From assembly GCF_053078305.1 (NCBI RefSeq), contig NZ_CP166879.1: a stretch of 64,000 nt of DNA. One strand, written 5' to 3'. The translations under genes and the position numbers were made by a program. Positions within the stretch are counted from its first letter, which is position 1. Every line of letters begins with the position of its first letter. The notes under the pieces were generated by a model that did no database searches, was not told where the DNA came from, and saw nothing but the letters and a program-made list of their open reading frames with translations. Shown one piece after another: positions 12,965-46,362 of the stretch.

Positions 12965-13263
12965 AATGGCTCACTCAAGCTTGCTCACGATTGATTCCAG
13001 TAACAAACCGTATTGTGTAATTATTTCTATAGCAGATCGCTATATAGGCTTGTATACATCGAATAATTTGAAAATCAAAGAGATAGGTAGATTTTCACTC
13101 GAAAGTAGTATTACGTGTAAGTGAGGAGTAATTATTGTTCGGTATCAAAGGGAGACAAAAAAAGCGCCCGCAGGAGGTTTAACGCTACTTACTCCCCTTG
13201 ATGATTTGCTTATTTTTCAATGAGTAAATCAAAACAAGGGGAGCAAATAAGCACAAGTTACAA

Positions 13264-14256
13264 CTAATCGATGGACAGTTTATGGACACTTTCAGCCAGC
13301 GGATTAAAGCTGATTGCATCCTGTAAAAAGTCCGGCGAAAAATGCGCATACGTCATCGTTTGTTGAATCGTGGCATGGCCCAGGATTCGTTGTAGCGTAA
13401 CGATATTTCCGCCATTCATCATGAAATGTGTAGCGAATGTATGACGCATGACATGGGTGGCCTGCCCTTTCGGTAAGTCCGGCTTCACCTCCTGAAGGAT
13501 CTCCCGAAATCTGAGGTAATCAGCCTGGTACAACAATCCGGTTCTGCGGGTTTTAATTAACGCAAGTACCGCATCAGAAACGGGAACGGCGCGAGATTTT
13601 CCGTTCTTGGTGTTAAAGAACATCACGCGGTTACCTACAATATGTTCCCCACGTAAACCAGCTGCTTCACCCCACCTTGCCCCCGTGGAAAGACACAGAA
13701 TGGCAACACGCCGCGCATCTCCATCGAGTCGTTCAAGCAGTCGTTCAATCTCCTCATCTGAAAGAAAGGCCATCTCTGTGTTCCTGACTTTCAGCTTACG
13801 TATTCCCCGAACCGGGTTTTCGTTATGGAACACCTCACCCTCAATCAGCGAGCTGAACATTGCAGACAAGGCACACAAATCGCGGTTAATGCTGGAAGGC
13901 ATTAACCCGGCCTGTAATTTGTCGGACCGGTACCCGAGCATAAATTTTCGCGTCATCTGACTGGCACGAGGATCACCCATCTCACGGTTTATCTTTTCCA
14001 GTCTGACCCTGTAGGTATCCCCGTAATCCTGGTTACGACCATCAAGCAACCACCAGGCCTCTATCAGTTCGGATAACCGACGCTGATCTGCTGGCTTAGC
14101 CTGCCATGGCTTATCATGAAAATTCTGCAAAACATACCTTTCAAACTCCTGCGCCTTTGACTTCAGGGTAAAAATCTTACGAATCCGCTTTCCTTCCGTC
14201 CCTTGTGGCCTTACATCAACCTTATAACGTCCGTCTTTGAGTTGCTTAATCGACAT
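13264..14256 (-). CDS. int: Phage integrase, tyrosine recombinase (P2 Int-like)
   Basis: N-terminus MSIKQLKDGRYKVDVRPQGTEGKRIRK closely resembles P2 Int; C-terminal catalytic region HVMRHTFATHFMMNGGNIVTLQRILGH...TMTYAH; track ORF begins at an upstream TTG. Confidence 0.9.
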   Translation of the reverse strand: MSIKQLKDGRYKVDVRPQGTEGKRIRKIFTLKSKAQEFERYVLQNFHDKPWQAKPADQRRLSELIEAWWLLDGRNQDYGDTYRVRLEKINREMGDPRASQMTRKFMLGYRSDKLQAGLMPSSINRDLCALSAMFSSLIEGEVFHNENPVRGIRKLKVRNTEMAFLSDEEIERLLERLDGDARRVAILCLSTGARWGEAAGLRGEHIVGNRVMFFNTKNGKSRAVPVSDAVLALIKTRRTGLLYQADYLRFREILQEVKPDLPKGQATHVMRHTFATHFMMNGGNIVTLQRILGHATIQQTMTYAHFSPDFLQDAISFNPLAESVHKLSID

Positions 14257-14325
14257 GATTAGCCCCTCCAACGGATAAATTAACCAAACACTCCCTGCGG
14301 GATGAAACCCGCTCGATGTGTAACG

Positions 14326-14673
14326 TCAGCCAGCATTGCGGCCTGATCGGGATGATTTTTGGGTAACGTCGATTGAAGCCAGATCGCCCTCCGACTGAGA
14401 AGATCCATCAAGAGAGAGAGCCGGGGCAATTTGACCCCCAGCTTCAAACGTTTCATCAGTTGTTAACCAAAGTGCATATTTTTTAAAACGTAAATTTTTT
14501 GTGATCTTTAATAAGATCTCACTTCCGATTCCATCTTGCCTTCCCGTTTCGTAATACCTCTGCGTATTAACAGGAATCCCTGTAAGCTCAAAGAATTGCT
14601 TCCTTGTAAGCCTCTCACTTTTCCGGATCATCAAGATTTTTTCACCGATACTTATTGACAGTGTCGAATTCAT
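14326..14673 (-). CDS. Immunity repressor (P2 C-like)
   Basis: From MNSTLSISIGEKILMIRKSERLTRKQFFELTGIPVNTQRYYETGRQ...GQIAPAL; matches P2 C repressor pattern (EKIVLMRKSE...YYESGR...SGQIAPAL) by recall; adjacent to int. Confidence 0.75.
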   Translation of the reverse strand: MNSTLSISIGEKILMIRKSERLTRKQFFELTGIPVNTQRYYETGRQDGIGSEILLKITKNLRFKKYALWLTTDETFEAGGQIAPALSLDGSSQSEGDLASIDVTQKSSRSGRNAG

Positions 14674-14774
14674 ACCACTAAAATCCTCGCAAAAGTGTCG
14701 TAATTTCGACATTAAACAAACCAAAACAAACCTTCATAAGGTGCAATAGGCGCACCTGTGCGAGAGGATAACAA
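14674..14774. promoter_or_regulatory. Divergent lysis/lysogeny switch region between C-like repressor and Cox-like gene
   Basis: Tandem 10-bp direct repeat (t/a)aaacaaacc x2 at 14713-14732 plus palindrome ggtgcaataggcgcacc at 14740-14756; P2-type repressors bind direct repeats. Confidence 0.5.
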
Positions 14775-15299
14775 ATGCGGGACTTCATTGCCGATAAAGA
14801 GTTATCTGACACCGATCACACAACTGGAGCGGCGTACATCAACGCCGATACCAGTCAACAAGAAGCAACAGATAACAACGACGAACAAAAGCCACAGCGC
14901 ACATATAAAAAAGGGGCAACCCTGCGGCTGGATGGCCCAATAGCCGGGCTTTGCTCACTTGAAAAAGGGGCCGCCTACATCGGATTAACAAAAACAGCAT
15001 TACGCGCAGCTCTCCAGCGTAACCAGATGCCAGGGCATAAAACCCGCTCAAACCCTGAAGATGAGAATTCGGATGGTGTTTGGTGGTTTAACGTCAGAGA
15101 GTGGGACAAGCTGGCCGACGAACTCCCGGAATGTGAGCCACCAGAATGGCACAACTGGAAAAGCTACTGGACATACGACCGCCAGAAAAGAAAGTTTACC
15201 CCGGCTGATAAGGAAGATTGCCAGACCGTCAATGGAAAACGGGTTTACAAAGGCAGAAAGTCAAAGCTGGAACAGAGCCAGGATGTAAACGAACGGTGA
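14775..15299 (+). CDS. Cox-like excisionase/transcriptional regulator with long N-terminal extension (start uncertain)
   Basis: Segment GAAYIGLTKTALRAALQRNQMPG...GVWWFNVREW resembles P2 Cox HTH region by recall; divergent from repressor; 174-aa ORF is longer than P2 Cox (91 aa). Confidence 0.5.
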   Translation: MRDFIADKELSDTDHTTGAAYINADTSQQEATDNNDEQKPQRTYKKGATLRLDGPIAGLCSLEKGAAYIGLTKTALRAALQRNQMPGHKTRSNPEDENSDGVWWFNVREWDKLADELPECEPPEWHNWKSYWTYDRQKRKFTPADKEDCQTVNGKRVYKGRKSKLEQSQDVNER

Positions 15300-15305
15300 T
15301 GAACG

Positions 15306-15701
15306 ATGAGCGGCAAAAATAAGTCAGAAAAAAACACAACCGTCCTTAAGCAGTTAAGCCTCCTGAAAGAGGAACACAAGGACGCCACGATACTGATGCA
15401 TCTGGAAGGCTCACCGAAAATAACAATCACAACAACCTATAGCGAGTTACACAAAGAGCTTGAAGGATTAATTAACTTTTGTTCAAAGCTAAAAGCGAAT
15501 GAAAACATTGATGACCTGATACTTAAACCAGAAGCAGAGTTCGGGCACTTTTGCGAAAGTAGAGAAAATGGATGCATCGGAATAATGCTATACGCAACCC
15601 GCGGAATAATGATTAATCTGCCCGTTGAGCAGGCTGTGGATATATTCGGAGAAATGGCACTTAATAAAACCACTATTTACAAAAGAAAAATGCCGGAGTA
15701 A
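15306..15701 (+). CDS. Hypothetical protein in AT-rich moron (131 aa)
   Basis: ATG overlapping stop of upstream gene; local GC ~40% versus ~55% in flanking phage genes; no recognisable motif. Confidence 0.45.
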   Translation: MSGKNKSEKNTTVLKQLSLLKEEHKDATILMHLEGSPKITITTTYSELHKELEGLINFCSKLKANENIDDLILKPEAEFGHFCESRENGCIGIMLYATRGIMINLPVEQAVDIFGEMALNKTTIYKRKMPE

Positions 15702-15714
15702 CCCGGCATGGTTA

Positions 15715-15909
15715 TTAGTATGTTGGTCCCTTAGAAAAGTTCCAGGAACTCTTGCGAGGGTATTTATGAAGTACTTTTTCGCGGACATCGTTAGCCAGAT
15801 CTCTGATTTGATCGTGCTTATCATCAGAAGACGGAGGAACTTCGGGGATTTTATCCACGATTTCAATTACTGATTTAAGCATTTTTATTAATTCATCGTC
15901 GTAAGACAT
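15715..15909 (-). CDS. Hypothetical small acidic protein in AT-rich moron (about 64 aa; start uncertain)
   Basis: Convergent with 15306..15701; track ORF 15715..15942; likely start MSYDDELIKMLKSVIEIVDK. Confidence 0.35.
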   Translation of the reverse strand: MSYDDELIKMLKSVIEIVDKIPEVPPSSDDKHDQIRDLANDVREKVLHKYPRKSSWNFSKGPTY

Positions 15910-16016
15910 TGTTATCTCCTTTTTCTGGTTGTGTGGAAACACCAGAATACCACGCGCCGGGCGTGGTTAAACATCCCGGCACTGATTTTCATTTAACTTA
16001 AACGGGGTTTTCCGAT

Positions 16017-16355
16017 ATGACACAGCGACGCAGCTTCCGCACTGGCGCAGAACGCCACGCAGCCCGTTTCTCAACCAGCGCATCACGCAGCAACTCGCAC
16101 TACAGCCTGCAGGAAACGCACGCCACACCTGACGGGCATCCGGTTAAACAAACCGGTAAACACACCTGGCTGATTAATGATGCCGGAATTGTCATTCACC
16201 GGGGCGCACGCAACCCGATTACCGGAAATACCTGTTACTCCCTGACTCGCGGAGATGAGCAGTTCGGGCAGGATTTCACCCTGCACGAAGCATTAAGAAC
16301 GGCAGACCGGTTAATCAGCGGTCGCAGTTTTCAGCACCCGGAACATCGCCGCTGA
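16017..16355 (+). CDS. Hypothetical phage early protein
   Basis: 112-aa ORF in early operon; no recognisable motif. Confidence 0.4.
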   Translation: MTQRRSFRTGAERHAARFSTSASRSNSHYSLQETHATPDGHPVKQTGKHTWLINDAGIVIHRGARNPITGNTCYSLTRGDEQFGQDFTLHEALRTADRLISGRSFQHPEHRR

Positions 16356-16374
16356 TAAATAAAAGGATTCAGCC

Positions 16375-16617
16375 ATGATCGAAGCCTACAAAATACTTAT
16401 TAATAATGCGTTGCAGCGTTATCACTTCGAACTCGCAAACCGGGGGGTAACCCGGGACGAAGGACTTCGTAACTCACTGCGGGGCGCAATTATGGGACTG
16501 TATAACTGCGCACTGGGCAGCGATGACCGCGAAGCACTGGAAGAATTAAAAGTTATTGTGGCCGAACTGTTTGAAGGTGAAATCGTTGAGCCTTATTTCA
16601 CAGAGGTGGCAGCATGA
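16375..16617 (+). CDS. Hypothetical phage early protein
   Basis: 80-aa ORF with RBS-like aaggattcagcc upstream. Confidence 0.4.
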   Translation: MIEAYKILINNALQRYHFELANRGVTRDEGLRNSLRGAIMGLYNCALGSDDREALEELKVIVAELFEGEIVEPYFTEVAA

Positions 16618-16739
16618 GCGTATTTCTTTCATGGGTGATTCTGATTATTTCCGTGCTTATGGCGATTGGCATTATGCGAATTATCGAAGCGCTGAAAAAT
16701 ATCGAATCTTTATTTACTGGCGAAGAACGCCGTAAATAA
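16614..16739 (+). CDS. Small single-TM membrane peptide (41 aa), translationally coupled (ATGA overlap)
   Basis: Not in the ORF track (below length cutoff); MSVFLSWVILIISVLMAIGIMRIIEALKNIESLFTGEERRK read from sequence; start overlaps preceding stop. Confidence 0.35.
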   Translation: MSVFLSWVILIISVLMAIGIMRIIEALKNIESLFTGEERRK

Positions 16740-16818
16740 ATAACCAACCGGACAGAAAACATTAAAACCATCCGCATCTGCGGAGGGCTTCACTCAATCC
16801 AGAAACGGAGAAACAGCT

Positions 16819-17097
16819 ATGAGCACCAATACACCTACAGAAATAAACAAACTATTTACCGACCCGGCGCATATTGAATTGACGCAAAAAACGCTGACTG
16901 AAATAACCAATGTACTGGATGAAAGAATATCAGAAATAGATAAAGACAAGCATTTTGCTACTTACATGGCCCTGCAAATGCAAAGCATGGCAATGGTGAC
17001 AGCAAAACAGACCATCAGTGAACTCTATATGAAAAACCTGCGCCTTGAGCACGAACTGGCAGAACTCCGGGCACAGTCCGGCCAGTTTTCAGCGTGA
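16819..17097 (+). CDS. Hypothetical phage early protein (predicted coiled coil)
   Basis: 92-aa ORF with RBS aacggagaaacagct before ATG. Confidence 0.4.
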   Translation: MSTNTPTEINKLFTDPAHIELTQKTLTEITNVLDERISEIDKDKHFATYMALQMQSMAMVTAKQTISELYMKNLRLEHELAELRAQSGQFSA

Positions 17098-17360
17098 GGG
17101 GCAGGACGATGAACAGCATATTTACCGCCACAAGACGAACCCTGCTGACGCATTTCACCGATGCCGCGGGCCGCGAATTCATGGTGGAAAGTTATTTAAT
17201 CACAACGACCACGCCGTGCCCGTCAGACGCTGATTATCTCTACATCCATCTGGCTGACGGAACACAAATCACCGCGATTGCCAGTACCGTTCGCGAAGTA
17301 ATGACCATCAGAGGGGCATGGAAATCAGAAACACAAGCCCACGGAGAGCTGCGGCCATGA
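17094..17360 (+). CDS. Hypothetical phage early protein
   Basis: 88-aa ORF, start overlaps preceding stop. Confidence 0.4.
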   Translation: MRGRTMNSIFTATRRTLLTHFTDAAGREFMVESYLITTTTPCPSDADYLYIHLADGTQITAIASTVREVMTIRGAWKSETQAHGELRP

Positions 17361-17569
17361 TCAGCAAGTACACCACCAACGCACGTAAACCCGGTAAAGA
17401 CGCACGCCACCACATCGCCGTACTCCGCAATCTGTTACTGGAGGAAATCGACGACTTCACGGCGACGCTGAGCGGTCCGGGCGCACCAGTAACACCAGGT
17501 GAGATCCACCGGGACCTTAAACGCCGTATTGAAAACGCCATTGATTACACCCTGAACCCGACCGAATAA
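17357..17569 (+). CDS. Hypothetical phage early protein
   Basis: 70 aa from MISKYTTNARKPGK; ATGA overlap with preceding gene; track ORF 17318..17569 starts upstream. Confidence 0.4.
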   Translation: MISKYTTNARKPGKDARHHIAVLRNLLLEEIDDFTATLSGPGAPVTPGEIHRDLKRRIENAIDYTLNPTE

Positions 17570-17595
17570 CCGGAACAGTAACGGAGGTTATCGCG

Positions 17596-18150
17596 ATGAG
17601 ACTTACACCAATGGGAATACCGGGCAAAGCCCCGGCACATGTGAAGGCGTGGACACAGCAGGAAGATCGGTTACTCATCTCGCTTTATCAGGAACACAAC
17701 ACACATCAGATGGCTGAACGAATTCAGCGAACCCGTAAAGCAGTTATGCACCGGATTCGTTTTTTACGTAATCGTGGGCTGATTGGCCGCAAGAGAAAAG
17801 CACCACTGAGTACAGAAGCCATAGCCTTTCTTATTAAAAACCGTCATGTAAAAACCGCACAGGAAATGGCTCTGGAAGTGGGATGTAGTGAGTGCACAGT
17901 GAGGTACACACTGCGTAAACGGGGTTACAACCTGAAAAAATGCGGTGAGAACCACCATTGCGCCAGATACAGCGATCATCTGGTTGAGCTGGTCACGGAG
18001 CTACGCGACATACACAACATGACGTTCTGCATGATCGCTGAACACATCAACAGCACGATACAGATGCACATTAACGACGATGCGGCGTTTCATCTCTACC
18101 ACCGCCGCACAGCGGCTGACGCCGCGCTCTGTGAACTGTTACCGGGCTGA
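17596..18150 (+). CDS. Putative DNA-binding protein with two HTH-like segments (occupies P2 gpB position; function unknown)
   Basis: 184 aa; segments HQMAERIQRTRKAVMHRIRFLRNRG and TAQEMALEVGCSECTVRYTLRKRG look helix-turn-helix-like; RBS acggaggttatcgcg. Confidence 0.4.
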   Translation: MRLTPMGIPGKAPAHVKAWTQQEDRLLISLYQEHNTHQMAERIQRTRKAVMHRIRFLRNRGLIGRKRKAPLSTEAIAFLIKNRHVKTAQEMALEVGCSECTVRYTLRKRGYNLKKCGENHHCARYSDHLVELVTELRDIHNMTFCMIAEHINSTIQMHINDDAAFHLYHRRTAADAALCELLPG

Positions 18151-18266
18151 GTGATCATCATGCACACACAAAAAAACCGCTTGCCATGCCGCAATCAGTC
18201 AGGTTACATTCCCACTGCACCTCATAAAACGGGTGCCGGGATTACCACCCCGCCGACTACACAAGC

Positions 18267-18290
18267 GCACAACCGCGCCAGCGGTTTTTT
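18267..18290 (+). terminator. Rho-independent terminator inside early region
   Basis: Hairpin accgcgccagcggt followed by TTTTTTT. Confidence 0.55.
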
Positions 18291-18470
18291 TGTGCGTACT
18301 GTATCGCCACGTCTTTTTCGCGTCAGAATTATGGCGGGGCGTACGGGGCCGACTTCGGTCGGGCCGGGGTCTTGTGTAGCCGGTTGTGGTAACCCTGTAC
18401 GTCTCGCCACCCTGAGATTACCGCCTCGGGTTGGTGAGTTTTCACAACTTACTACACAAGGGGCCACACC

Positions 18471-18698
18471 ATGGCAAACCGCAAACAACAGCGCGTCCGC
18501 GCTGAGCGTCTTCACATCCGCACCGAAATCAACCGCAGACTCTGGCGCGCATCACGCGTCGCGCAAATCATGTACATCAACATGCTGCATGAACACGCAC
18601 ACGCGCTGTCAGACCGTTACTGTGCCGCCGTCTTCAGCTACCTGGCGGATGACCTGGCAGAGCTGCAGGACCTTATCAACCAGCAACACCACCACTAA
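18471..18698 (+). CDS. Hypothetical small protein
   Basis: 75 aa; ATG with aagggg RBS; preferred over overlapping low-complexity ORF 18151..18780. Confidence 0.4.
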   Translation: MANRKQQRVRAERLHIRTEINRRLWRASRVAQIMYINMLHEHAHALSDRYCAAVFSYLADDLAELQDLINQQHHH

Positions 18699-18766
18699 AC
18701 AACATCCTGAAGCCATCCCGCACCCGTGCGCGGGAGGCTTCCGCACGTCTGTTACCGGAGGTTCTC

Positions 18767-19189
18767 ATGAAGAACGTTAAGGGACTTTCAGATATTCAGG
18801 ATTTTTTTAACTGGATGTGGGCAGTGGATCCCCGGCTGGCTTCCCGCCTGAACGACTGGCACGACTATTACCGCCGCGCCTGTAAACAGGCCGCCAGACG
18901 CGTCACCACATACGGGGATTTCTCCTTCACCGTTGACGGCAGTTACCGCGTGGACGTGAAAGGCGATGGTGATGGTTTTGGTTTTGGTTTATTTCACATC
19001 AACGGAACCGACAGCACCGCCATCAGCTGGTCGTCGTCAGAGATGACGCTTGTTCTGGAAATGACAAACCACAGCGTGGCCGTGAAAGGTATATACACCG
19101 CAGAAGACTTTATCGGTGAATACCAGCGCCTTCTCGTGCTGTACCGGGCAGCGTTTCAGGCGGCAACTGCCGGGGAGTGCGACGCATGA
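18767..19189 (+). CDS. Hypothetical protein preceding replication gene
   Basis: 140-aa ORF; stop overlaps start of the replication gene. Confidence 0.4.
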   Translation: MKNVKGLSDIQDFFNWMWAVDPRLASRLNDWHDYYRRACKQAARRVTTYGDFSFTVDGSYRVDVKGDGDGFGFGLFHINGTDSTAISWSSSEMTLVLEMTNHSVAVKGIYTAEDFIGEYQRLLVLYRAAFQAATAGECDA

Positions 19190-21705
19190 GCGACCATAAC
19201 GCACAACTGGCGTACCCGTGGAACGCCCCGCTGCCGGTTATCGATCCTGAAACGTTCGGCAGAGCGCAACCAACCGCATTACGCCAGGCCATTCAGAGCT
19301 ACATCAACGAAGACATTCGCACTGACGCCAGACTGGATGAAGAAACCGTCGCCTTCCTGACAACCACAGACGAAGGGAAGCGAATTAATTCGCATCTTCA
19401 CCACGACGAAGAGCGTCGGATCAGACTGGAAAAACTGACGCGACACAAACGCGAAAATCCACCCACGCTGGTATCTGAAGCCATGGCAGAGCTGCGCGCC
19501 CTGCCGCCGTTTCTTGCCGGTCCGCTCATCCGTGACCTGGCCCGCCTGAGCCGCAAACAGGAGAGCGCACGCCGGGAAGGGCTTAAGAATAACAGCGCAT
19601 ATGCGGCGGATAACTTCGTTCGTCACGGCCTGCGTGCCCGCCTGAAACGTATCGCCCGTGTGAATGAACGCTTTGCCACCCCGGCCTTTAAGGCCACCGC
19701 CGCCCGCGAACGGCTGGATGAACTGCTTATGCTGCCGCAGCTGAGCCGTGACGAAATCCAGCGCCTTGCCACCCTGACCGCCACCGCGTTTTCCGCCGCA
19801 CTGGAGCGCGCATGTGATGAGGTCATCGAAAAGACCGGCAGGGGTGACGATGACCTGTTCACCTGGTTACTGACCTACCAGCCACTGGCACGCATGGCGT
19901 TAAAACTGGGTATCACACCACCCTGCTGGCCGTCGCTGGAAATCAGACCCGACCGCCGCACCGCCCCCGACCCGGAACAGGTGCCGGGTGCGGTCATGCG
20001 CCTTTCCTGTGCGACATGGTGGAACAGTCAGTTAAGACACCTCCGGGACATCTGGCGTGAAGAGCTGTTACGCGCCGCAGGTCTGGTGTCACGTAAGACA
20101 TCGGTATATATCAGCCATGAAGCGTTACTGGACTGGCGCGAAAAACGCCAGCGCACCCGCGATTTTCTGAAGGCCTGGGACATCGAGAACGAAGAGGGAG
20201 AACGGTTCAGCCTTGAGGATATCTACTGGGCAGGTCTCTCTAATCCGCGTAACCGCCGTAACGAGATGATGGCCTGCGTCCGGGGAATGGAGCAGGTCGC
20301 CGAAGCACGCGGCGACCTGGCGTTTTTCGTCACCGTCACAGCCCCTTCCCGTTTTCACAGCGTGAACGATGACGGCAGCCTGAACCCGAAATACTGCGGA
20401 GCAACGGTACGTGATGCCAGTGATTATCTGGTTTACCGCTTTTTCGCCGCCGTCCGCAGGGCCATCAACAAGGCCGGGCTGGGCTGGTACGGCGTGCGCA
20501 CAGTGGAGCCCCACCACGACGGTACACCGCACTGGCACATGCTGGTATTCACCAGCCCGGAAAACGAAGCCCGTATCACTGAAATCATGCGCAACGCCGC
20601 CATCAGGGAGGACCGCGCAGAGCTGGGTGATGATATCTCCCCGCGTTTTAAATGCGAAAAAATCGACCCGGCAAAAGGCACACCGGCGAGCTATATCGCG
20701 ACCTATATCGGTAAGAACCTGGACGCCAGCGCCTTCATGGGGAATGACCCGAAAACCGGCAAACCTTACGTCGATAAGGAATCAGGCAAAACCATGGCCG
20801 AAACCGTGGAGAACGCCATCGGCTGGGCGGCCCTTCACCGCATCCGCCAGTTCCAGTTCTTCGGTATCCCTCCCCGCCAGGTATGGCGCGAACTCCGCCG
20901 CCTTGCCGGGCAGATGGCCCGTAACCCGGCTGCCCCGCAGCGTCTGGACCATGACGACATTGACGCCATACTGGCCGCCGCCGACGTGGGATGTTTTGCC
21001 ACCTATATCACCCGCCAGGGTGGTGTGCTCATTCCCCGCAACACGTACCTGGTCCGCACCGCATACGAAACTGCCGAAGAGGCCAACGACTACGGCGAAT
21101 TCCCGCAACGCATTTACGGCGTCCGCGCCCCGTCACTCGGGGAGCGCTACACCATATGCACCCACCCGGACACCTGGAAACTGGTCAGACGTAAGCCGGA
21201 AAACGAAGACCGCACGGACGAGGGTTTTGACGTTGAGTGCGGCTTTGCCGCACCTTGGACTCGTGGCAATAACTGTCCCCCTGACCAGAATCTGACCATA
21301 AACGACCCGCCAGAAAGGCAGCCGGACGGACGCAGGGAGCAGCGACTTACCCTGCCGGAAGGTGATTTGGGTGAATGGTTAAGGTCACTGACCCCCACAG
21401 AGCGAAAACAACTCACCAGGCAGCTGAAAAACCCGCCACCTGACACGGAAACCGTGAAAAACGGCGGCATCAGTGCGCCCGCTGGCGGCGTTCGCGTGAG
21501 TGTCGCACTGACCGCTGAGCCACACATCACCGCACAAATCACCCGTGAGCTTGATGCGCTGGGCGTGCAGCTGCATGAAAGCGCCGTCGTTTCCGTCCGG
21601 CACGGTGCCCGCGTGCGCCTGGCTGACGGGCGCACCGCGTACTGGAATGACAGCACCCGCCGCATTGATATCACCCCCGCACCGAATACGGAGGCGCCAC
21701 AATGA
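19177..21705 (+). CDS. Replication initiation endonuclease (P2 gpA-like, HUH rolling-circle Rep)
   Basis: 842 aa; HUH-type motif EPHHDGTPHWHMLVF; located where P2 A lies relative to int-C-cox. Confidence 0.8.
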   Translation: MRRMSDHNAQLAYPWNAPLPVIDPETFGRAQPTALRQAIQSYINEDIRTDARLDEETVAFLTTTDEGKRINSHLHHDEERRIRLEKLTRHKRENPPTLVSEAMAELRALPPFLAGPLIRDLARLSRKQESARREGLKNNSAYAADNFVRHGLRARLKRIARVNERFATPAFKATAARERLDELLMLPQLSRDEIQRLATLTATAFSAALERACDEVIEKTGRGDDDLFTWLLTYQPLARMALKLGITPPCWPSLEIRPDRRTAPDPEQVPGAVMRLSCATWWNSQLRHLRDIWREELLRAAGLVSRKTSVYISHEALLDWREKRQRTRDFLKAWDIENEEGERFSLEDIYWAGLSNPRNRRNEMMACVRGMEQVAEARGDLAFFVTVTAPSRFHSVNDDGSLNPKYCGATVRDASDYLVYRFFAAVRRAINKAGLGWYGVRTVEPHHDGTPHWHMLVFTSPENEARITEIMRNAAIREDRAELGDDISPRFKCEKIDPAKGTPASYIATYIGKNLDASAFMGNDPKTGKPYVDKESGKTMAETVENAIGWAALHRIRQFQFFGIPPRQVWRELRRLAGQMARNPAAPQRLDHDDIDAILAAADVGCFATYITRQGGVLIPRNTYLVRTAYETAEEANDYGEFPQRIYGVRAPSLGERYTICTHPDTWKLVRRKPENEDRTDEGFDVECGFAAPWTRGNNCPPDQNLTINDPPERQPDGRREQRLTLPEGDLGEWLRSLTPTERKQLTRQLKNPPPDTETVKNGGISAPAGGVRVSVALTAEPHITAQITRELDALGVQLHESAVVSVRHGARVRLADGRTAYWNDSTRRIDITPAPNTEAPQ

Positions 21706-22106
21706 CCCGCTTTTATTGCGCCATGCAGCGCCAGCGTTTTGACGAAATGATGCGCCAGCGCACGCCCTTACTGACCCTGAACAACATTGCCACGGGGCCA
21801 CAACCGGGCGATGAGCTGGAAATCACGGTCGTCAGTCCCGATCGCACCACCACGGCCATCATCACCGACATACTCAACGGACGACCGGACAGCACCAACC
21901 GCAGCTGGCTTGTCGCCGTTCGTCCGCGCCGTCCGCCCGGAGAGCCGGAGCCGCTCACGCCTGCCGGAAAAATCATGCGGCAGTACCACGAAGAGCAGGA
22001 ACACAAACACAACGCAGAACTGACCAGAACACTGGCATCGATTAACCGCAAAGCGGCAATTGCCCGCTATGTGCATTCAGCCGCAGGCAGACAATCACGC
22101 AGGTAA
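21702..22106 (+). CDS. Hypothetical protein, translationally coupled to replication gene
   Basis: 134 aa; ATGA overlap with gpA-like stop. Confidence 0.4.
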   Translation: MTRFYCAMQRQRFDEMMRQRTPLLTLNNIATGPQPGDELEITVVSPDRTTTAIITDILNGRPDSTNRSWLVAVRPRRPPGEPEPLTPAGKIMRQYHEEQEHKHNAELTRTLASINRKAAIARYVHSAAGRQSRR

Positions 22107-22115
22107 ACAAAGACC

Positions 22116-22325
22116 ATGAACATAACCAGAAACAGCCAACTAAAGGAGCGCACCATGAACAGCACCAGGAGGATCAGCGACAGAGAGCTTACGAAAATGA
22201 TTGAGTCGGCACAGCAGCTGCTTTCACGACAAAACCCGGTCGTGGAAGAAACATGGTGGGAGAATTTACTGGCAGCACTGACCGAACTCCGGGAACGCCG
22301 GAACAACGAAGGAGCCGCCAAATGA
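22116..22325 (+). CDS. Hypothetical small protein
   Basis: 69-aa ORF; start may be internal (MNSTRRISDREL). Confidence 0.3.
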   Translation: MNITRNSQLKERTMNSTRRISDRELTKMIESAQQLLSRQNPVVEETWWENLLAALTELRERRNNEGAAK

Positions 22326-22648
22326 AGACCCCAGGAATGACCGGAAAGGAAATCATTTTACGCTACCTGGAAACGCACACACGTTTCAGCGCCCCAGAAC
22401 TGGTAGAAAAACTGGGCGTGAAAAGAACCGTCATTAATCAGGCCGCCGGGAAAATGGTACGGGAAGGCCTGCTGGTTGTGGATGGATACACGGACAAGAT
22501 AACGCATTACCGGAAGCCAACGGAAAAGGAACGACAGGAACTGGCGCAACGGGCTGAACGGCAGCAGGAAAAATCAGTCATCGAAGCCTGCAAGCGCAGC
22601 GAAATCATGAAGCGAATTCTGTTTATCTACGGCGCTGCATTCCGTTAA
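22322..22648 (+). CDS. Putative winged-helix DNA-binding protein
   Basis: 108 aa from MKTPGMTGKEIILRYLETHTRFSAPELVEKLGVKRTVINQAAGKMVREGLLVV; ATGA overlap with preceding ORF. Confidence 0.4.
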   Translation: MKTPGMTGKEIILRYLETHTRFSAPELVEKLGVKRTVINQAAGKMVREGLLVVDGYTDKITHYRKPTEKERQELAQRAERQQEKSVIEACKRSEIMKRILFIYGAAFR

Positions 22649-22713: not shown

Positions 22714-22977
22714 TCAGGAACGCCGCGACAGTAGTTCAAGCGCATACCGGCGATCTTCCGGGCGCATGGCATCAACAAGAAACTTCACCATATTGCGACC
22801 GGAGCGGGCGCCGGGGCTGAGGGTATGGGAAAAGGTCATCGTACAGACGAAGGTGTGCCCGCATTCGACATCACTGCATGCACAGTACAGATCCGCAAGT
22901 TCAGGGGTTTTCCAGTCTGTCTTCCGGATGACAGCAGGTGCGCCACAGTCAGGACACCGGGCTTTAAAAATCCGCAT
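22714..22977 (-). CDS. Ogr/Delta-family zinc-finger late-gene transcription activator
   Basis: From MRIFKARCPDCGAPAV...YCACSDVECGHTF: CPxC...CxxxxxCxxTF pattern of P2 Ogr; GGGAGG RBS 7 nt upstream of ATG. Confidence 0.7.
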   Translation of the reverse strand: MRIFKARCPDCGAPAVIRKTDWKTPELADLYCACSDVECGHTFVCTMTFSHTLSPGARSGRNMVKFLVDAMRPEDRRYALELLSRRS

Positions 22978-23014
22978 CTTACCTCCCGATAACACGTATC
23001 CCGGGGAAGACATT

Positions 23015-24088
23015 TTACCCGACCGGCACCACTTTTTCTTCCGCCACATGCCCGGCTTCCACATCAAAACGAAGATAAAGGTGTTCCGGTATATCGGGAT
23101 CGCTGTTCACGGCGTTCATGATTTTACGCTGAAGCGGTATCACCTCATCCTTGCGGTACGTTTCACGCGTCGTTTCCGGGTTAGGGATGGTGGCCCCGTT
23201 CGTGGGGATGATCCCCGCAAGACCGGCAGGAAAGCGGTGTGCCGTAAACACATCCTGGGCGCTGATCCCCTTGATGTTTGAAAATTCATCCTTGGCGCTC
23301 ACCTCACCAATCGGAATAATTTTCACCCCATCCGGCGAACCTTTGGGGATGTTGATGTACAGATTGCGGAAATTTCCCAGCCCCTTAGACTCCGCCACCT
23401 TCTCGCGGATCTCATCCTCCATCTCCGTGGTGATCCCAGGGTCGTTCGTATACAGCAAAAAGCCCATATGCGCCCCGTTGTTGTAGTAACGGCGACGAAA
23501 AAGGCTGGCCTCGCTGTTCAGCAGCGCCGAGTGAATGCCACCGATATAATCCGGCAGCCCGTAAATTTGCTGACGCGGATCATACATCCGCAGAAAGATA
23601 ATATCTTCCGGCGTATAGACCAGCGCGGGACCTTCCTGAAGCACCACGAACTCACCGGTTTTGCGGCGCCGGAGATACAGCGACGGAAGCGGCTCAAGTG
23701 CCACGACGTCGCCGAATACGTTACGCACCTTGAGCAGGGCGAGATCGCCGAACAACAGGTAGTCAAATACCGCCTGTTCCATCTGGTCCGTTGTGAGGCC
23801 ACCACCGGTATAGCCCCCCGCCACCATGTTACGGCGGGCATACAGCACCCCACCGTGCTGGGCGTTAAGGTTCGGGAGCTGCGCCAGTGCCAGGCGGTTA
23901 ATCGGCAGCTGCCAGTGGTTGTGTTCGTTGTCATACCAGATGTTATGGTAGTCCGTGCCGGTGGTCAGCACCGGTTCCGGCTGACCAAACGTGATTGTGC
24001 TGCCACGTGCGGGCGTGAATGCTTTTTTCGTCACGCGTGACGTTTTGTTTCTGCGTTTCTTGCTCATGCGGCTTTCCCGAAGGCCCAT
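23015..24088 (-). CDS. Portal (capsid vertex) protein, P2 gpQ-like
   Basis: 357 aa; size and position upstream of terminase ATPase on same strand as in P2 Q-P; family assignment by recall. Confidence 0.6.
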   Translation of the reverse strand: MGLRESRMSKKRRNKTSRVTKKAFTPARGSTITFGQPEPVLTTGTDYHNIWYDNEHNHWQLPINRLALAQLPNLNAQHGGVLYARRNMVAGGYTGGGLTTDQMEQAVFDYLLFGDLALLKVRNVFGDVVALEPLPSLYLRRRKTGEFVVLQEGPALVYTPEDIIFLRMYDPRQQIYGLPDYIGGIHSALLNSEASLFRRRYYNNGAHMGFLLYTNDPGITTEMEDEIREKVAESKGLGNFRNLYINIPKGSPDGVKIIPIGEVSAKDEFSNIKGISAQDVFTAHRFPAGLAGIIPTNGATIPNPETTRETYRKDEVIPLQRKIMNAVNSDPDIPEHLYLRFDVEAGHVAEEKVVPVG

Positions 24089-25890: not shown

Positions 25891-26035
25891 CCGGCCCGCA
25901 TTCAGGCAGAAAATTTCGGCTGTGTTCGGCTATCCCGCGTTATCCGAAGACAGCCGAATTCAGCCAGTAGCCCCCCGCTGTAAAAATCCCGACACTCACC
26001 GGAGTTCTTCAGATTTTCACGTAAAAGAGGCCACG

Positions 26036-27085: not shown

Positions 27086-27096
27086 GGACACGCAAC

Positions 27097-31757: not shown

Positions 31758-32219
31758 ATGGCCGGAAATGAACGTATCAGCGGCGGCGCGTTTGATATCA
31801 ACTACGACGGGATCATGATCCACGTGGAAAGCGCCACCGTCACCATCACCGACAACAGCGCCGTGGCACAGACGCGCGGCGTGCCGAACGGCTACACCCG
31901 TGGTTCTGTTTCTGCCGATGTGGAGGTGGAAGTCGACGCGCAGAACTTTAAAAAGTTTGGTGCCGTGGCCCGCTCTGCGGGGTCGTGGCGTGCCATTCCT
32001 GAAAAGGATTTTCTCTTTTATGCCAACAACGGCAGCGAGGAGGAAAAAATCGAGGTGTTCGGCTGCGTCCCCATGTTGTCGGACGTGGTGAACATCAGCG
32101 CAGGTGAAGCCGGAAAGACCACGAAAAAAATCAAGTTCATGGTCACAAGCCCGGACTTTATCAGCATTGACGGCGTGCCCTACCTGTCAGCCCGTGACAC
32201 CCGCGATCTGAAGGGGTGA
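31758..32219 (+). CDS. Putative tail tube protein
   Basis: 153 aa from MAGNERISGGAFD; position after sheath candidate. Confidence 0.35.
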   Translation: MAGNERISGGAFDINYDGIMIHVESATVTITDNSAVAQTRGVPNGYTRGSVSADVEVEVDAQNFKKFGAVARSAGSWRAIPEKDFLFYANNGSEEEKIEVFGCVPMLSDVVNISAGEAGKTTKKIKFMVTSPDFISIDGVPYLSARDTRDLKG

Positions 32220-42209: not shown

Positions 42210-42723
42210 TGGTGAGGGTATTTTCATGCAGAACATGGTGATTTCGCCCTCGATGCAGTTCCAGGAAAAGGACCAGTCCGGTCAGACATCGAGCACCGCG
42301 AACGCCGAGCAGGGCATCAAGGCCAAAGAGCTTCGCGTAACCGGGATGATCACCTTTGACAATGAGCGGGCCCTTCAGCGCATTTTCCAGCTGGCCTCTG
42401 CCACCACCGGGGACGGTGCCCTGAAAGTTTACCGTATCGCAAACGCCACCGCTGCCGCCATTAACTTTCGTGAAGGGACATTTTCCGGGCAGATAGACGC
42501 ACAGCAGCAGACCGACCGCCTCGCCTGGCAGGTCAGCTTCACATTACGCGAAAGACGAAGCGTACCGGAAAAACGCCAGGCACGCGCCGCACCCGGCAGC
42601 AGCCGTAAACAGACGCCGCAGACGCCCGGCGCAAAAGGCGGGACCGTGGCCGACGAAACACCGGAGAAAATGACCTGGTTCGAAGAAAAGGTCCTCAAAC
42701 CCGTCAATGATGCGCTGGAGTAA
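42181..42723 (+). CDS. Hypothetical tail-region protein (start uncertain)
   Basis: 180-aa ORF overlapping upstream gene; alternative start MQNMVISPS. Confidence 0.3.
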   Translation: MSQTALLALDGEGIFMQNMVISPSMQFQEKDQSGQTSSTANAEQGIKAKELRVTGMITFDNERALQRIFQLASATTGDGALKVYRIANATAAAINFREGTFSGQIDAQQQTDRLAWQVSFTLRERRSVPEKRQARAAPGSSRKQTPQTPGAKGGTVADETPEKMTWFEEKVLKPVNDALE

Positions 42724-42725
42724 CC

Positions 42726-44399
42726 ATGAACCCCACTAAACGTCTGTTACTGGGTAACGACACCATTCAGCTGGTCAGCTGTTCCGTCATGCTTGAGCTG
42801 AACGCGTGCGGACGCGGATTTATCACGGCCAGAACGGAGCAGAACTACACCGGGCGCCCTGTTCGTCTCGATATCGGATACGGAAACGACCTGGTGCGCT
42901 GGTTTACCGGATACGTTGAACGCAGCCAGCCCGCTGAAAACGGCTCGGTGCGGCTTCTGATTCGTGAAATGGCGGGGATCCTTGATCACCCCTTCCCCTG
43001 TTCATTTCAGCACCCGACAATGCGCACGGTCACACAGTGGCTGAGTGAGACCAGCGGGCTGGAAATCATCCTGCCGGACAACGCGGCTTACACTGACAGA
43101 CCCGTTCCGCATTTCACGCACAGCGGCACGGGCTACGAACTGCTGGCCAGTCTGGGGCGTATTTTCTCCGTACCGGACTACATCTGGCATCCGTTACCGG
43201 ACGGCGGCATTATGGCCGCTGCCGCCGCGCAGGGGATGTTTTCCGGTCGCCCCGTCACCATCCCGCACGAGTTCAGCCAGGCATCAACGGGCGGACACAG
43301 TATGACCCTCCCGATGATTCAGACGCTGCGACCGGGTGTGGAGGTGAACGGTCAGCGCCTGACGATGGTCATGCTGGAAGATGACAACATGACCATCACG
43401 TGGACACCACGCAATAAAGCCACCGGCGCCCCCCTCCAGAAGTCCCCTTTCCGTCGCCAGGCTGAAAAGGCCTTCCCTGAACTGGCATCAGGGCTTCACC
43501 TGCCCAAACTGGCACGTGTTGAGGCGCCGACCGAAGCCGTCAGCGCGGGCAATATTGCCGACCCGTTCAGACCCCGCTACGCGGTGAATCTCCAGCTGCT
43601 TGACGAGAACGGCAACCCGGCAGCGGATACGCCCGTTTATAACGCCGTTCCCCTCCCCGTTCCTATGGCGGGCAGTGAGTCCGGCATGTTCCAGTTCCCG
43701 CCCCCCGGAACCCTGGTGGAAGTGGGATTTGTGGAAGGCCGGGCGGATAAGCCCTTCATCCGCCAGATAATGGCAGAGGGCCACAATCTGCCCGACGTGA
43801 AGCCGGGCGAGCAGTTGCAGCAACAGCGCGACGGCGTATCGCAGCGCGTGACGGTCGCCGGAGACTGGGAGCGCCAGACAGACCAGCGGATACAGGAGAC
43901 ATCACGCGAGCGCGTGGTGAGCGCAGACGAGGAGACGCGGAGCCTGACCAGCCGGGAGACCACCATACAGGCAACCGACACAACCACCGTCCTGGGCGTA
44001 TCCACGCTTCAGGCTGGCGCAGTCACCCATATCACTGAAGAGAACTACAGCATCAGCACGGGCGGGCACATGATGGTGGTTGCCGGTACCTGTGAGCGCG
44101 ACGTGGAAGGCGACACACTGGACACCGTGGGCGGCAGCCTTACCGAAAAGATTAAGGGCGTCCGTCACAGTATTGCGCAGGCGCAGAAGCTGGTTGGCGA
44201 TACGGTGAAGCTGGGAAACGAGGGCATTAATGTACTGACCATGCTGACGGACCTTGCCGATGTGGTGGAAGAGCTGGCCGATATTACGGCATCACATACC
44301 CACCCCAAAACGGGCACGTCTCCGCAGGCCGCACAGTTCAGCCAGGTCGCTCAGGAGTGCCGCCAGCTTAAAAATAAATATTCACCAATAATCGAATAA
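42726..44399 (+). CDS. Putative baseplate hub / central spike protein
   Basis: 557 aa; C-terminal region with histidine motif ITASHTHP resembling iron-binding spike tips (P2 gpV-type); last gene before non-coding right arm. Confidence 0.35.
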   Translation: MNPTKRLLLGNDTIQLVSCSVMLELNACGRGFITARTEQNYTGRPVRLDIGYGNDLVRWFTGYVERSQPAENGSVRLLIREMAGILDHPFPCSFQHPTMRTVTQWLSETSGLEIILPDNAAYTDRPVPHFTHSGTGYELLASLGRIFSVPDYIWHPLPDGGIMAAAAAQGMFSGRPVTIPHEFSQASTGGHSMTLPMIQTLRPGVEVNGQRLTMVMLEDDNMTITWTPRNKATGAPLQKSPFRRQAEKAFPELASGLHLPKLARVEAPTEAVSAGNIADPFRPRYAVNLQLLDENGNPAADTPVYNAVPLPVPMAGSESGMFQFPPPGTLVEVGFVEGRADKPFIRQIMAEGHNLPDVKPGEQLQQQRDGVSQRVTVAGDWERQTDQRIQETSRERVVSADEETRSLTSRETTIQATDTTTVLGVSTLQAGAVTHITEENYSISTGGHMMVVAGTCERDVEGDTLDTVGGSLTEKIKGVRHSIAQAQKLVGDTVKLGNEGINVLTMLTDLADVVEELADITASHTHPKTGTSPQAAQFSQVAQECRQLKNKYSPIIE

Positions 44400-44411
44400 T
44401 TATTCACTTTA

Positions 44412-44440
44412 ACAGGCCGCGCAATGTGGCCTTTTTTATT
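44412..44440 (+). terminator. Rho-independent terminator after last tail gene
   Basis: Hairpin ggccgcgcaatgtggcc followed by TTTTTT. Confidence 0.55.
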
Positions 44441-44459
44441 CCCGGACAATAAAAAATAT

Positions 44460-45100
44460 TCATCACCGGACATCACCCACCACGAAAAAACCGTCCGCAG
44501 CAGAAAAAAAGATGGACGAAACGCCCCACGTAATCCCCACGTAAAACGTCGCGTAACGCCACGTAACGAAGAGATAACCCCGCCAGCCCGATTCGATCCC
44601 CTGACATCAGAAAACGATTTCTGCGCCCCAAAATCGCCGCAAATGGCCGGAAATTTTCGGGGGCGACGTAACGCGTAAAGTGACGTAATCGGCGCTACCC
44701 CGCACACGCCTCCGGTATTTGTGTACGATAAATTTTGCAAATCGAAAGGGGTGCAAAACACCCCTCCAGGGCGCGCCATTACTGAGTTTTTCCCTTCTGA
44801 ATGGTTTTGCACTTTGTGCAAGGTTTTGCAAAAGTGTGCAAAAACTCCGGCTTTCTGAGGATCCCGAAAAATTTTAATGCACTGAATAACAAGAGATTTT
44901 TAAAATTACGTCACGATCGAAGATCTGAAAAAGGATCCGACGACGAAAACGAAAAAATCAGGAAAGCCAGAACTGGCGCGGTCTGGCGGGGAGTGGCAGC
45001 AAAAATCACTTTTGCACACTTTTGCACAACTGCTCCGAAAAAGGATGGCGAAGGGGAAGGAAAACAGCCACGTCATCCGTTGCACGTAACGGACGTAAAA
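44460..45100. repeat. Non-coding iteron array (ACGTAA-type and TTTTGCAC/GTGCAAAA-type short repeats)
   Basis: At least 10 copies of (c/g)acgtaa(c) at 44528-44690 and 45070-45100; direct/inverted ttttgca(c/a) copies at 44735-44850 and 45010-45030; no credible ORF. Confidence 0.6.
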
Positions 45101-45105
45101 GGTAA

Positions 45106-45463
45106 ATTACGCGCGGGTGCCTTTCGGCTGACGGCTGGAAGGAATACCTGAAGGCCGGATGTGAAAAGGCCCCGAGTCAACTAACGTTAACCCGAGGCCC
45201 TGACACTTCCTACCTGACAAGTGGAAGGTTAGCGCCTCCCTGTAAAAGGAGTCAAGCGCTATGCCGCAAAAAACGATCATAGTGAGCATTTTATGCATAA
45301 CTATTTTGATGATTGTCTGGATGATACACACGTCACCGTGTGAGTTCAGGCTTAACATCATGTGGTCACAATTTGCGGCGTTCTTGCAGTGTAAACAGTA
45401 AGAAACCGCAGCGGGGGTGAAAGCCCCCGCTATCCGGTTGCCGGGTTCGGTCGATATGGCACC
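45106..45463 (+). repeat. Copy 1 of ~360-bp duplicated module carrying a small hydrophobic-peptide gene (type I toxin-like locus)
   Basis: Near-identical to 45826..46186 (about 90% by eye); starts attacgcgcgggtgcctttcgg, ends at GC hairpin gcgggggtgaaagcccccgc. Confidence 0.7.
45261..45401 (+). CDS. 46-aa hydrophobic peptide, Hok/Gef-like candidate type I toxin (copy 1)
   Basis: MPQKTIIVSILCITILMIVWMIHTSPCEFRLNIMWSQFAAFLQCKQ; AGGAG RBS 8 nt upstream; single TM then Cys-containing tail, as in Hok family; highly structured leader. Confidence 0.45.
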   Translation: MPQKTIIVSILCITILMIVWMIHTSPCEFRLNIMWSQFAAFLQCKQ

Positions 45464-45516
45464 TTTTCTCCATTGGATTACAGACGTATTTGCCCGCGAC
45501 ATGCGGGCCTTTTTGT

Positions 45517-45720
45517 TCAGTTGTATTTATTGTGGTCGTTACTGGCAGTGGCATTAACTGATTTTGCATGAATAGCACAAATTTTTTCCACGATAACACC
45601 ACACGCTTCAAGGTCTTCCGGGCGTGAAACCTTTATTTTTGTAATAGTCTCAGGATTATCAGCCGTTCCACTTTGCACAACCTCAATTTCAATTTTTTTT
45701 CTTGAAAGAATCATTTTCAT
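45517..45720 (-). CDS. Hypothetical small protein (67 aa) between the two duplicated modules
   Basis: ATG-initiated ORF in AT-rich spacer; weak SD. Confidence 0.25.
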   Translation of the reverse strand: MKMILSRKKIEIEVVQSGTADNPETITKIKVSRPEDLEACGVIVEKICAIHAKSVNATASNDHNKYN

Positions 45721-45825
45721 CGCCCCGACACAGGACAGAGTAAGCCTGTGCGAAAGAATATCACCAGTGCGATAGCGTTGTCTGCTTCAACGCCAGGCAT
45801 TGCGCACACAAAGGGAAATCAGTAC

Positions 45826-46186
45826 ATTACACGCGGGTGCCTTTCGGCTGATGGCTGGAAGGATTACCTGAAGGCCGGATGTGGAAAGGCCCCGAGTCAA
45901 CTTTAATGTTAACCCGAGGCCCTGACCATCTACCCTAAGCAAGTGGAAGGTTAGCGCCTCCCTGTAAAAGGAGTCAAGCGCTATGCCGCAAAAAACGATC
46001 ATCGTGAGCATTTTATGCTTAACCATGTTGTTGACCGTCTGGATGATACACCGTTCTCCGTGTGAGTTCAGGCTTAACATCATGTGGTCAGAATTTGCGG
46101 CGTTCTTGCAGTGTAAACCGTAAGAAACCGCAGCGGGGGTGAAAGCCCCCGCTATCCGGTTGCCAAAGGTTCGGTCGAAAGTCGCA
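45826..46186 (+). repeat. Copy 2 of ~360-bp duplicated module (type I toxin-like locus)
   Basis: Direct repeat of 45106..45463 with scattered substitutions. Confidence 0.7.
45983..46123 (+). CDS. 46-aa hydrophobic peptide, Hok/Gef-like candidate type I toxin (copy 2)
   Basis: MPQKTIIVSILCLTMLLTVWMIHRSPCEFRLNIMWSEFAAFLQCKP; same RBS and frame as copy 1; differences are mostly conservative. Confidence 0.45.
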   Translation: MPQKTIIVSILCLTMLLTVWMIHRSPCEFRLNIMWSEFAAFLQCKP

Positions 46187-46206
46187 CCCTCACACAAAAG
46201 TCACAA

Positions 46207-46238
46207 AGAAAAACAAAGCCCGCAGCGTAAAAACTGCG
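46207..46238. terminator. Bidirectional rho-independent terminator (serS end / right-arm transcripts)
   Basis: Perfect hairpin aagcccgcag-cgtaaaaa-ctgcgggctt flanked by A-run and T-run. Confidence 0.65.
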
Positions 46239-46362
46239 GGCTTTTTTGTTTCAAAGATGGACGTTATCTGGACACATGAAAATAAAAAATCTTTATTTTC
46301 AATATGTTAACCACCCACTAAAACCACCCGCAGGCGCTTTTTAGATTCAGAAAAATTAGGTA

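Follow-up and report, generated by a model that had tools for sequence, protein, structure and literature searches.

In reference Escherichia coli the genes dmsA and serS are neighbours, parted in strain MG1655 by a spacer of 238 bp. In the 64,000-nucleotide stretch of contig NZ_CP166879.1 (NCBI RefSeq assembly GCF_053078305.1) analysed here, referred to throughout as the window, they stand ~33.4 kb apart, and the locus raises the question of what lies between them, how it was inserted and how well it has been preserved. An earlier note on this DNA had recognised a block of phage genes and placed a P2-family-related prophage at positions 12965-46362. The insertion of a prophage in the serS-dmsA spacer is confirmed by the comparisons described below. 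We interpret the element as a temperate, contractile-tailed phage of the Peduoviridae (P2-like), integrated by site-specific recombination, with a probability of about 0.85.

The insertion and its attachment sites

Both junctions were compared with the 5,426 complete E. coli genomes. Nearly all of these, the empty-site genomes among them, match the left flank of the window only to ~13174-13180 and the right flank only from ~46320. Since most genomes match only outside the two junctions, the block is an insertion relative to the common arrangement. The insert comprises 33,160 bp (13175-46334, with one core copy counted) and splits the serS-dmsA spacer; its GC content is 0.561, rising to 0.583 in the late genes, compared with 0.509 in the flanks. 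The interval given in the earlier note does contain the insert, but its limits run from gene to gene and add ~210 bp of host DNA on the left, including the dmsA promoter region, and 28 bp on the right. The site is, as that note held, an intergenic one flanked by protein-coding genes and not a tRNA gene.

Alignment to insert-free genomes, which the earlier note had proposed as the means of defining the attachment sites, yielded attL, attR and a shared 8-bp core, CCCGCAGG, that had escaped detection by eye. Identical junctions are found in the independent genomes 2013C-3033 and Z1323MEC0001. The empty site attB reads ...GACAAAAAAAGCG-CCCGCAGG-CGCTTTTTAGATTC..., attL reads ...AAAAAAAGCG-CCCGCAGG-AGGTTTAACGCTAC... 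and attR reads ...CTAAAACCA-CCCGCAGG-CGCTTTTTAG..., from which the attP junction of the phage is reconstructed as ...AAAACCA-CCCGCAGG-AGGTTTAACGC.... In attB the core forms the loop and inner stem of a hairpin, AAAGCGCC-CGCA-GGCGCTTT, with an A-run on one side and a T-run on the other. The stem arms are altered symmetrically in the attP of the window phage (GCGCC to CCACC and GGCGC to GGAGG), so that the core half-sites differ from those of attB at four positions. The attP of PhiECO5-type prophages (ZH193, of ST131, and UTI89) shares 20 bp with attB, AAAGCGCCCGCAGGCGCTTT, corresponding to the whole hairpin and including the same 8 bp. Because attP of the window phage and attB have only the central 8 bp in common, we infer that strand exchange must fall within CCCGCAGG. 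This core is shorter than most of those in the P2 family, for which lengths of ~20 to 110 nt are quoted (Nilsson et al. 2011, PMC3448106).

The integrase gene adjoins dmsA and is of P2 type, in agreement with the earlier note. Its product is 56% identical to P2 Int, 50% to the Int of Salmonella phage SI7 and 89% to that of the ZH193/PhiECO5-type prophages. The catalytic residues R195, K218, H269, R272, H295 and Y304 are invariant with P2 Int, as are Y12, D15 and R17 in the N-terminal domain, where Y, D and R have been described as discriminators of P2-type arm binding (Nilsson et al. 2011, PMC3448106). The expected arm sites are also present. Two repeats at the left end (gaTGGACAg at 13272 and taTGGACAc at 13283) and two at the right (gaTGGACGt at 46258 and tcTGGACAc at 46269) fit the P2-type consensus tgTGGaCa (PMC3448106); these four TGGAC[A/G] repeats lie on one strand (+) in ~490 bp, compared with a background of 0.89 per kb.

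These features are consistent with a mechanism in which a heterobivalent tyrosine integrase of P2 type would bind the four arm-type repeats, two per arm at 11-bp phasing, together with the inverted core-type half-sites, and would exchange strands inside the 8-bp overlap CCCGCAGG. A protein of the Cox family is predicted to bias recombination toward excision, and the C repressor to keep the lysogenic state. Once repression is lifted, rolling-circle replication would start from a nick made at the origin by gpA, and Ogr would switch on the late operons. The particle so produced would have a P2-type head joined to a contractile tail of HP1/Irrigatiovirus type, and would presumably be released by a holin, an M15 endolysin and Rz/Rz1.

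Gene content and intactness

Genes were identified by PHROG, NCBIfam and Pfam searches (Table 1). The PHROG matches include a gpA-type endonuclease, an activator of Ogr/Delta type and a contractile tail, as expected of the Peduoviridae. The head cluster is divergent, as in that family, with the portal and large terminase on the minus strand and the scaffold, capsid, small terminase and head completion genes on the plus strand. Membership of the P2 family therefore stands, with a refinement: int-C-cox, gpA, ogr and the head genes are P2-like, but the layout of the tail and lysis genes is of HP1/Irrigatiovirus type and does not follow the P2 order. The element is a Peduoviridae mosaic, in which a P2-type integration and immunity module is combined with a morphogenesis and lysis module of HP1/Irrigatiovirus type.

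The alternative that survives best is that of a cryptic, or 'grounded', prophage, in which the open reading frames (ORFs) are intact and non-coding defects (in cos, the origin, promoters or att arms) or missense changes prevent excision, replication or packaging. Several observations favour this alternative and weigh against a functional phage. No match to the P2 cos 19-mer was found in the window with up to three mismatches, the cos of the SI7/ESSI-2 lineage not having been searched for. The reconstructed attP junction had no match in IMG/VR, searched with two patterns, or in JGI metagenome contigs, and public viral and metagenome data thus give no evidence for excision or packaging. All five near-identical IMG/VR contigs align in the prophage arrangement, two of them (L011 and L014) reaching a host junction; and the four half-site differences between attP and attB might lower the efficiency of recombination. 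The gene functions throughout are assigned by homology.

On the other hand, no frameshift or truncation was found in any prophage ORF, all ~45 being uninterrupted. In tblastn comparison with SI7, which was isolated as a phage from irrigation water, each of the 24 head, tail and lysis proteins aligns over its full length and in the same order (47-85% identity). The arm sites and the catalytic residues of the integrase are likewise intact. At least 80% of the element is present in 11 of the 5,426 complete E. coli genomes (0.2%), from different hosts and countries, and its 95-99% identity among them suggests that it has spread recently by horizontal transfer instead of decaying where it stands. 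We consider a cryptic state unlikely. The statement in the earlier note that the prophage appears intact is upheld as regards the presence of all modules and the uninterrupted ORFs, but the intactness is that of the ORFs, neither the P2 cos nor an excised form having been found. Repressors of the P2 C type are not known to be SOS-cleavable, so that mitomycin C could fail to induce even a viable phage.

Table 1. Positions of genes, sites and other features of the prophage and its flanks in the window
Feature	Position	Strand	Basis
Host dmsA, left flank	10520-12964	-	ORF; RefSeq annotation of matching genomes
STnc130 (putative enterobacterial small RNA), full-length match across attL	13055-13189	+	Rfam, 122.3 bits, two stem pairs broken
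Probable dmsA FNR box TTGATaccgAACAA, 18 bp from the att core	13135-13148	-	Sequence read
attL core CCCGCAGG	13167-13174		Junction alignment; same junction in L002 (strain 2013C-3033)
P2-type tyrosine integrase, 330 aa	13264-14256	-	phrog_1; Pfam Int_N and Phage_integrase
P' arm-type Int sites, two TGGACA repeats with starts 11 bp apart, overlapping the int 3' end	13272-13288	+	Repeat scan; P2-type consensus
C-type immunity repressor (helix-turn-helix)	14326-14724	-	phrog_147
Cox-family regulator, probable excision directionality factor, 174 aa	14775-15299	+	phrog_23196; PGAP name 'Cox family DNA-binding protein' on a 100% identical homologue
Small early genes (DUF4761, DUF4754, DNA-binding protein, Ash-like ORF, others)	15306-19189	+	Family matches
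isrK-like RNA (18217-18291) and C4 antisense RNA (18327-18414), inside the Ash-like ORF	18217-18414	+	Rfam, 63.6 and 79.6 bits, above gathering score
gpA-type replication endonuclease (origin nickase), 842 aa	19177-21705	+	phrog_91, E 8e-237
Small accessory genes, including a Ren-like/MarR-like winged-helix protein (22253-22648)	21702-22648	+	phrog_14984, phrog_142; PADLOC matches weak only
Ogr/Delta-type zinc-finger late activator (ORF limits)	22714-23067	-	phrog_603; PGAP name of homologue
Portal (Q-like) and large terminase (P-like), ORF limits	23015-25890	-	phrog_68, phrog_5909/3746; 78% and 76% identity to SI7
Scaffold (O), major capsid (N), small terminase (M), head completion/adaptor (L)	25844-29422	+	phrog_73, 70, 74, 71; 52-68% identity to SI7
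Tail terminator, Neck1, DUF2586-type tail sheath, tail tube	29419-32219	+	phrog_65, 26, 907, 1182
Lysis cassette: holin, M15 endolysin (33271-33609), Rz/Rz1	32224-34095	+	Family matches
Orphan N6/N4 DNA methyltransferase between holin and endolysin	32519-33271	+	Family matches; PADLOC type II-like; not at this position in SI7
Tail chaperone, 728-aa tape measure, DUF2590, baseplate J, I, 686-aa tail fibre, fibre assembly protein, two conserved unknowns, 557-aa baseplate/hub protein	34092-44399	+	phrog_2258, E 1e-242, for the 557-aa protein; colinear with SI7
Stretch rich in repeat motifs, no convincing gene	44400-45110		Motif counts; orf116 without family match
Terminator-like hairpin at the end of the late operon	44414-44432	+	Terminator search
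Direct duplication of ~720 bp with two toxin loci of hok/sok type; hok ORFs 45261-45401 and 45983-46123	45102-46164	+	phrog_251, MokW-like
67-aa ORF between the hok loci	45517-45720	-	ORF
Phage-borne bidirectional terminator-like hairpin, 11-12 bp stem, in the P arm ~80 bp inside attR	46215-46244		Terminator scan
P arm-type Int sites, TGGACG and TGGACA, starts 11 bp apart	46258-46274	+	Repeat scan; kept in ZH193 attR
attR core CCCGCAGG	46327-46334		Junction alignment; same junction in L003 and L004
Host serS, right flank	46363-47655	-	ORF; comparison with empty-site genomes

In the early region, the C repressor is only 61% identical to its copy in 2013C-3033, and the Ash-like ORF 75% identical to its counterpart there, in prophages that are otherwise 97-100% identical. 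This pattern suggests a swap of the immunity region between near-identical phages. The isrK-like and C4 RNAs lie in tandem in the N-terminal half of the 209-aa Ash-like ORF (18151-18780); the arrangement resembles, we presume, modules of P1/P7 and Gifsy-1 in which RNA controls an antirepressor. The protein-family matches to this ORF may result from the annotation of an RNA gene as coding sequence.

PADLOC found no defence system among the accessory ORFs apart from the type II-like methyltransferase, which has no restriction enzyme gene beside it; as its gene sits between those of the holin and the endolysin, it would be expected to be expressed late. In two relatives the tail fibre gene is split by PGAP into two partial pseudogenes (L003, 4317-6377, and L004, 3317-5383). 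The 686-aa fibre of the window aligns to each of these loci as one continuous segment with 91-92% identity, and the mosaic structure of the fibre has probably led to its being wrongly annotated as a pseudogene. The GC content of the late region (0.583 for 22700-44400) is above that of E. coli (0.509), of the SI7 late genes (0.552) and of 75 IMG/VR relatives (median 0.531, maximum 0.574). A different, GC-richer native host is unsupported: a search of species-representative genomes with the phage-side attL junction gave only two chance matches, in Streptomyces and in a metagenome-assembled genome of the Bacillota.

The right end and the host site

The right end of the insert carries a tandem ~720-bp duplication with two hok/sok-type loci that are 94% identical. 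The hok ORFs match phrog_251 at E 2e-18 and 5e-19, and the Rfam sok matches (49.5 and 35.8 bits) are below the gathering score of 59. The number of hok/sok copies varies among relatives, from one (ZH193, UTI89) to two (Z1323MEC0001) and three (2013C-3033), and from these comparisons the loci appear as a variable-copy toxin array that adjoins attR and is common to two phage lineages. Next to it lies a 711-bp stretch (44400-45110) with eight copies each of ACGTAA (0.38 expected) and TTTTGCA (0.23 expected) and a 21-nt inverted repeat (44823-44843 and 45010-45030; fold z-score -3.0). This stretch is conserved at 97-99% in all lineage members.

The composition of this end bears on a second alternative, that the block consists of two side-by-side elements, namely a prophage and a hok/sok-bearing remnant of an earlier PhiECO5-type prophage at the same site. 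The variable copy number would fit such a history, as would the lower GC content of the right-end cargo (0.476, against 0.583 in the late genes) and the hok gene that PhiECO5-type prophages also have next to attR. However, the P-arm Int sites are distal to the hok copies, beside attR, which places the hok loci inside the element, and it is on this position that we reject the two-element reading. In addition, the block contains no third att-like junction, the other copies of CCCGCAGG lying in coding sequence without att flanks, and the entire right end is kept as a unit in all lineage members. Taken together, these data make two elements highly improbable. The contractile tail module could in principle belong to a phage-tail-like bacteriocin (tailocin) or a phage satellite, a reading effectively refuted, and left with a negligible probability, by the complete head and packaging module (portal, both terminase subunits, scaffold, capsid and adaptor), the replication nickase, the integrase, the immunity switch and a size of 33 kb that is typical of the Peduoviridae.

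The terminal hairpin of STnc130, which is described only as a 'putative sRNA' (small RNA) next to dmsA (PMC3632133), is the att hairpin itself. The Rfam score of STnc130 falls from 140.1 bits at the empty site of MG1655 to 122.3 bits in the window, the gathering score being 55. The match is antisense to the dmsA promoter region, and read-through from it would run antisense into int. An FNR site at -41.5 of dmsABC has been reported (PMC3688515). The FNR box listed in Table 1 is probably that of dmsA, and both it and the promoter remain joined to the gene.

Folding predictions suggest how integration might alter the hairpin on each strand. The hairpin on the serS strand has a predicted energy of -15.4 kcal/mol in attB and -10.2 kcal/mol in attR, where the U-run is kept; that on the opposite strand changes from -14.1 kcal/mol in attB to -3.5 kcal/mol in attL. 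The attB hairpin is probably a bidirectional terminator after serS. At attR its serS-strand form would be largely rebuilt and backed by the phage terminator, the hairpin at 46215-46244 being placed where it would insulate the prophage from serS read-through, while the opposite-strand hairpin at attL would be lost.

From these predictions we derive a tentative model to which we attach a low probability. The att site would be a bidirectional terminator common to serS and to STnc130, the latter overlapping the dmsA promoter in antisense. Lysogeny would keep the terminator on the serS strand and abolish that on the STnc130 strand, a loss proposed because the attP half-sites differ symmetrically from attB, so that a host promoter would read antisense to int. 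Lysogens of PhiECO5 type, with their 20-bp core, would keep the stem pairs at attL with a shortened T-run, and the type of lysogen would then alter the host small RNA and the antisense transcription of int in different ways. If the model is correct, the 8-bp and 20-bp cores would also delimit the strand-exchange region of this integrase family. Telling against it, a simple consensus terminator scan did not call the attB hairpin, probably because its A and T runs pair and use up the required T tail, and the terminator role, with its effects on serS, STnc130 and dmsA, is a prediction from folding energies and the Rfam structure.

Elsewhere in the window an orphan mini-CRISPR (61355-61443) adjoins tRNA-Ser(GGA) (61225-61312). 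It consists of two repeats with CTGTACGGCAGTGAAC, ~32 nt apart, one of which matches Rfam CRISPR-DR4 (50.1 bits, minus strand), and we assume that it corresponds to the known residual type I-F array of this region of the E. coli chromosome.

Comparison with known phages and prophages

The serS-dmsA site is already known, and is less unusual than the earlier note implied. We found no literature that links dmsA and serS with a prophage or integrase, and the use of the site was traced through the UTI89 coordinates given by Nilsson et al. (2011, PMC3448106), who catalogued PhiECO5 of that strain at 911187-948481. This interval lies between serS, which ends at 911155, and dmsA, which starts at 948688. 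P2-type integrases, moreover, typically insert between genes and not into tRNA genes (PMC3448106). A related integrase is joined to dmsA in 343 of the 5,426 complete E. coli genomes (6.3%).

The element itself is much rarer. In a comparison with 50,697 phage genomes, its coverage at the DNA level by a single record does not exceed 14%, and IMG/VR holds five near-identical contigs, the next identity being 67%. One of the five, L011 (IMGVR_UViG_3300021279_000032), contains at 5400-7039 a sibling phage, which is joined to host ytfP and has 98% identity between the fibre assembly gene and the hok locus. The terminator-like hairpin at its junction, gcgCCACCcgaaGGTGGcg, differs from that between serS and dmsA and follows a TGTGGACA motif; its low-GC cargo includes a 328-aa protein with matches to DNA-ligase families in the N-terminal ~85 residues. 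The possibility that L011 represents a free genome, running from the hub gene via attP into int, was rejected on this prophage junction beside ytfP and its other cargo. The late module therefore travels with more than one att module.

Two named genera were considered. The absence of any DNA match to P2 or 186, the position of the sheath and tube genes upstream of the lysis genes and the DUF2586-type sheath speak against Peduovirus. With respect to Irrigatiovirus, late synteny is kept, but a 22.8-kb query is covered over only ~13% of its length (71% identity), and the early region is unrelated; members of a genus share ~70% nucleotide similarity over the genome. Both assignments fail, and the element probably represents an unnamed species or genus.

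We conclude that the prophage is an ordinary and well-preserved member of the Peduoviridae. It combines known parts in a new mosaic, which is rare, and does not represent a new kind of element. Our understanding of prophages or att sites is unchanged by it, and its practical value is modest. The analysis does define attL, attR and a reconstructed attP for a prophage lineage uncommon in E. coli, to which no sequenced phage is closely related. It further shows that two structurally different Peduoviridae lineages use one integrase/att module, the 8 and 20 bp of shared sequence narrowing the position of strand exchange, and it offers a clean example of the exchange of regulatory and integration modules against morphogenesis modules in P2-like phages that was proposed by Nilsson et al. 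(2011).

PhiECO5 of UTI89 and its ST131 relatives such as ZH193 are closest in integration. They occupy the same serS-dmsA site in the same orientation, with int beside dmsA, matching arm repeats, an Int that is 89% identical, an early region with ~81% DNA identity from int-C-cox to gpA (as for P88-like prophages) and a hok gene adjoining attR. In contrast to the window prophage, their tail genes follow the classical P2 order (V-W-J-I-H-G, FI-FII-E-T-U-D-ogr), they carry parM/parR-like genes, their GC content is 0.519 compared with 0.561, and their attP and attB are identical over 20 bp rather than 8 bp.

The Salmonella phages SI7, SW3 and SW5 (Peduoviridae, Irrigatiovirus) are closest in morphogenesis. 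Their head, tail and lysis genes have the identical order and include the DUF2586 sheath, DUF2590 and the terminal baseplate protein. The sheath is 67% identical to those of SW3, SW5 and SI7, 59% to those of ESSI-2-like phages and vB_YenM_324, and 48% to those of phiO18P, HP1 and HP2, and a 2.9-kb late part, from the capsid to the Neck1 genes, has 71% DNA identity to SI7. SI7 differs in its integrase, its gpA (34% identical), an unrelated Cox and a different att, and has neither a methyltransferase in its lysis cassette nor hok/sok loci.

P2 itself (Peduovirus) shares the type of integrase and arm site, the C/cox switch, the gpA nickase, Ogr, the divergent Q-P and O-N-M-L head cluster and integration between protein genes, whereas it has no detectable DNA similarity to the element, a different tail and lysis organisation, a cos that is absent from the window and another attB. 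HP1, HP2 and the HP1-cluster prophages PhiECO4 and PhiECO6 have the same sheath type and late-gene layout, but the switch of HP1 is of 186 type, and its integration target is a tRNA-Leu gene (PMC3448106). PhiECO4 and PhiECO6, here compared by description only, were already known as E. coli prophages in which HP1-cluster late genes accompany a regulatory region of P2 type (Nilsson et al. 2011, PMC3448106); the first of the two is catalogued at the site used by P2 and not at serS-dmsA (PMC3448106).

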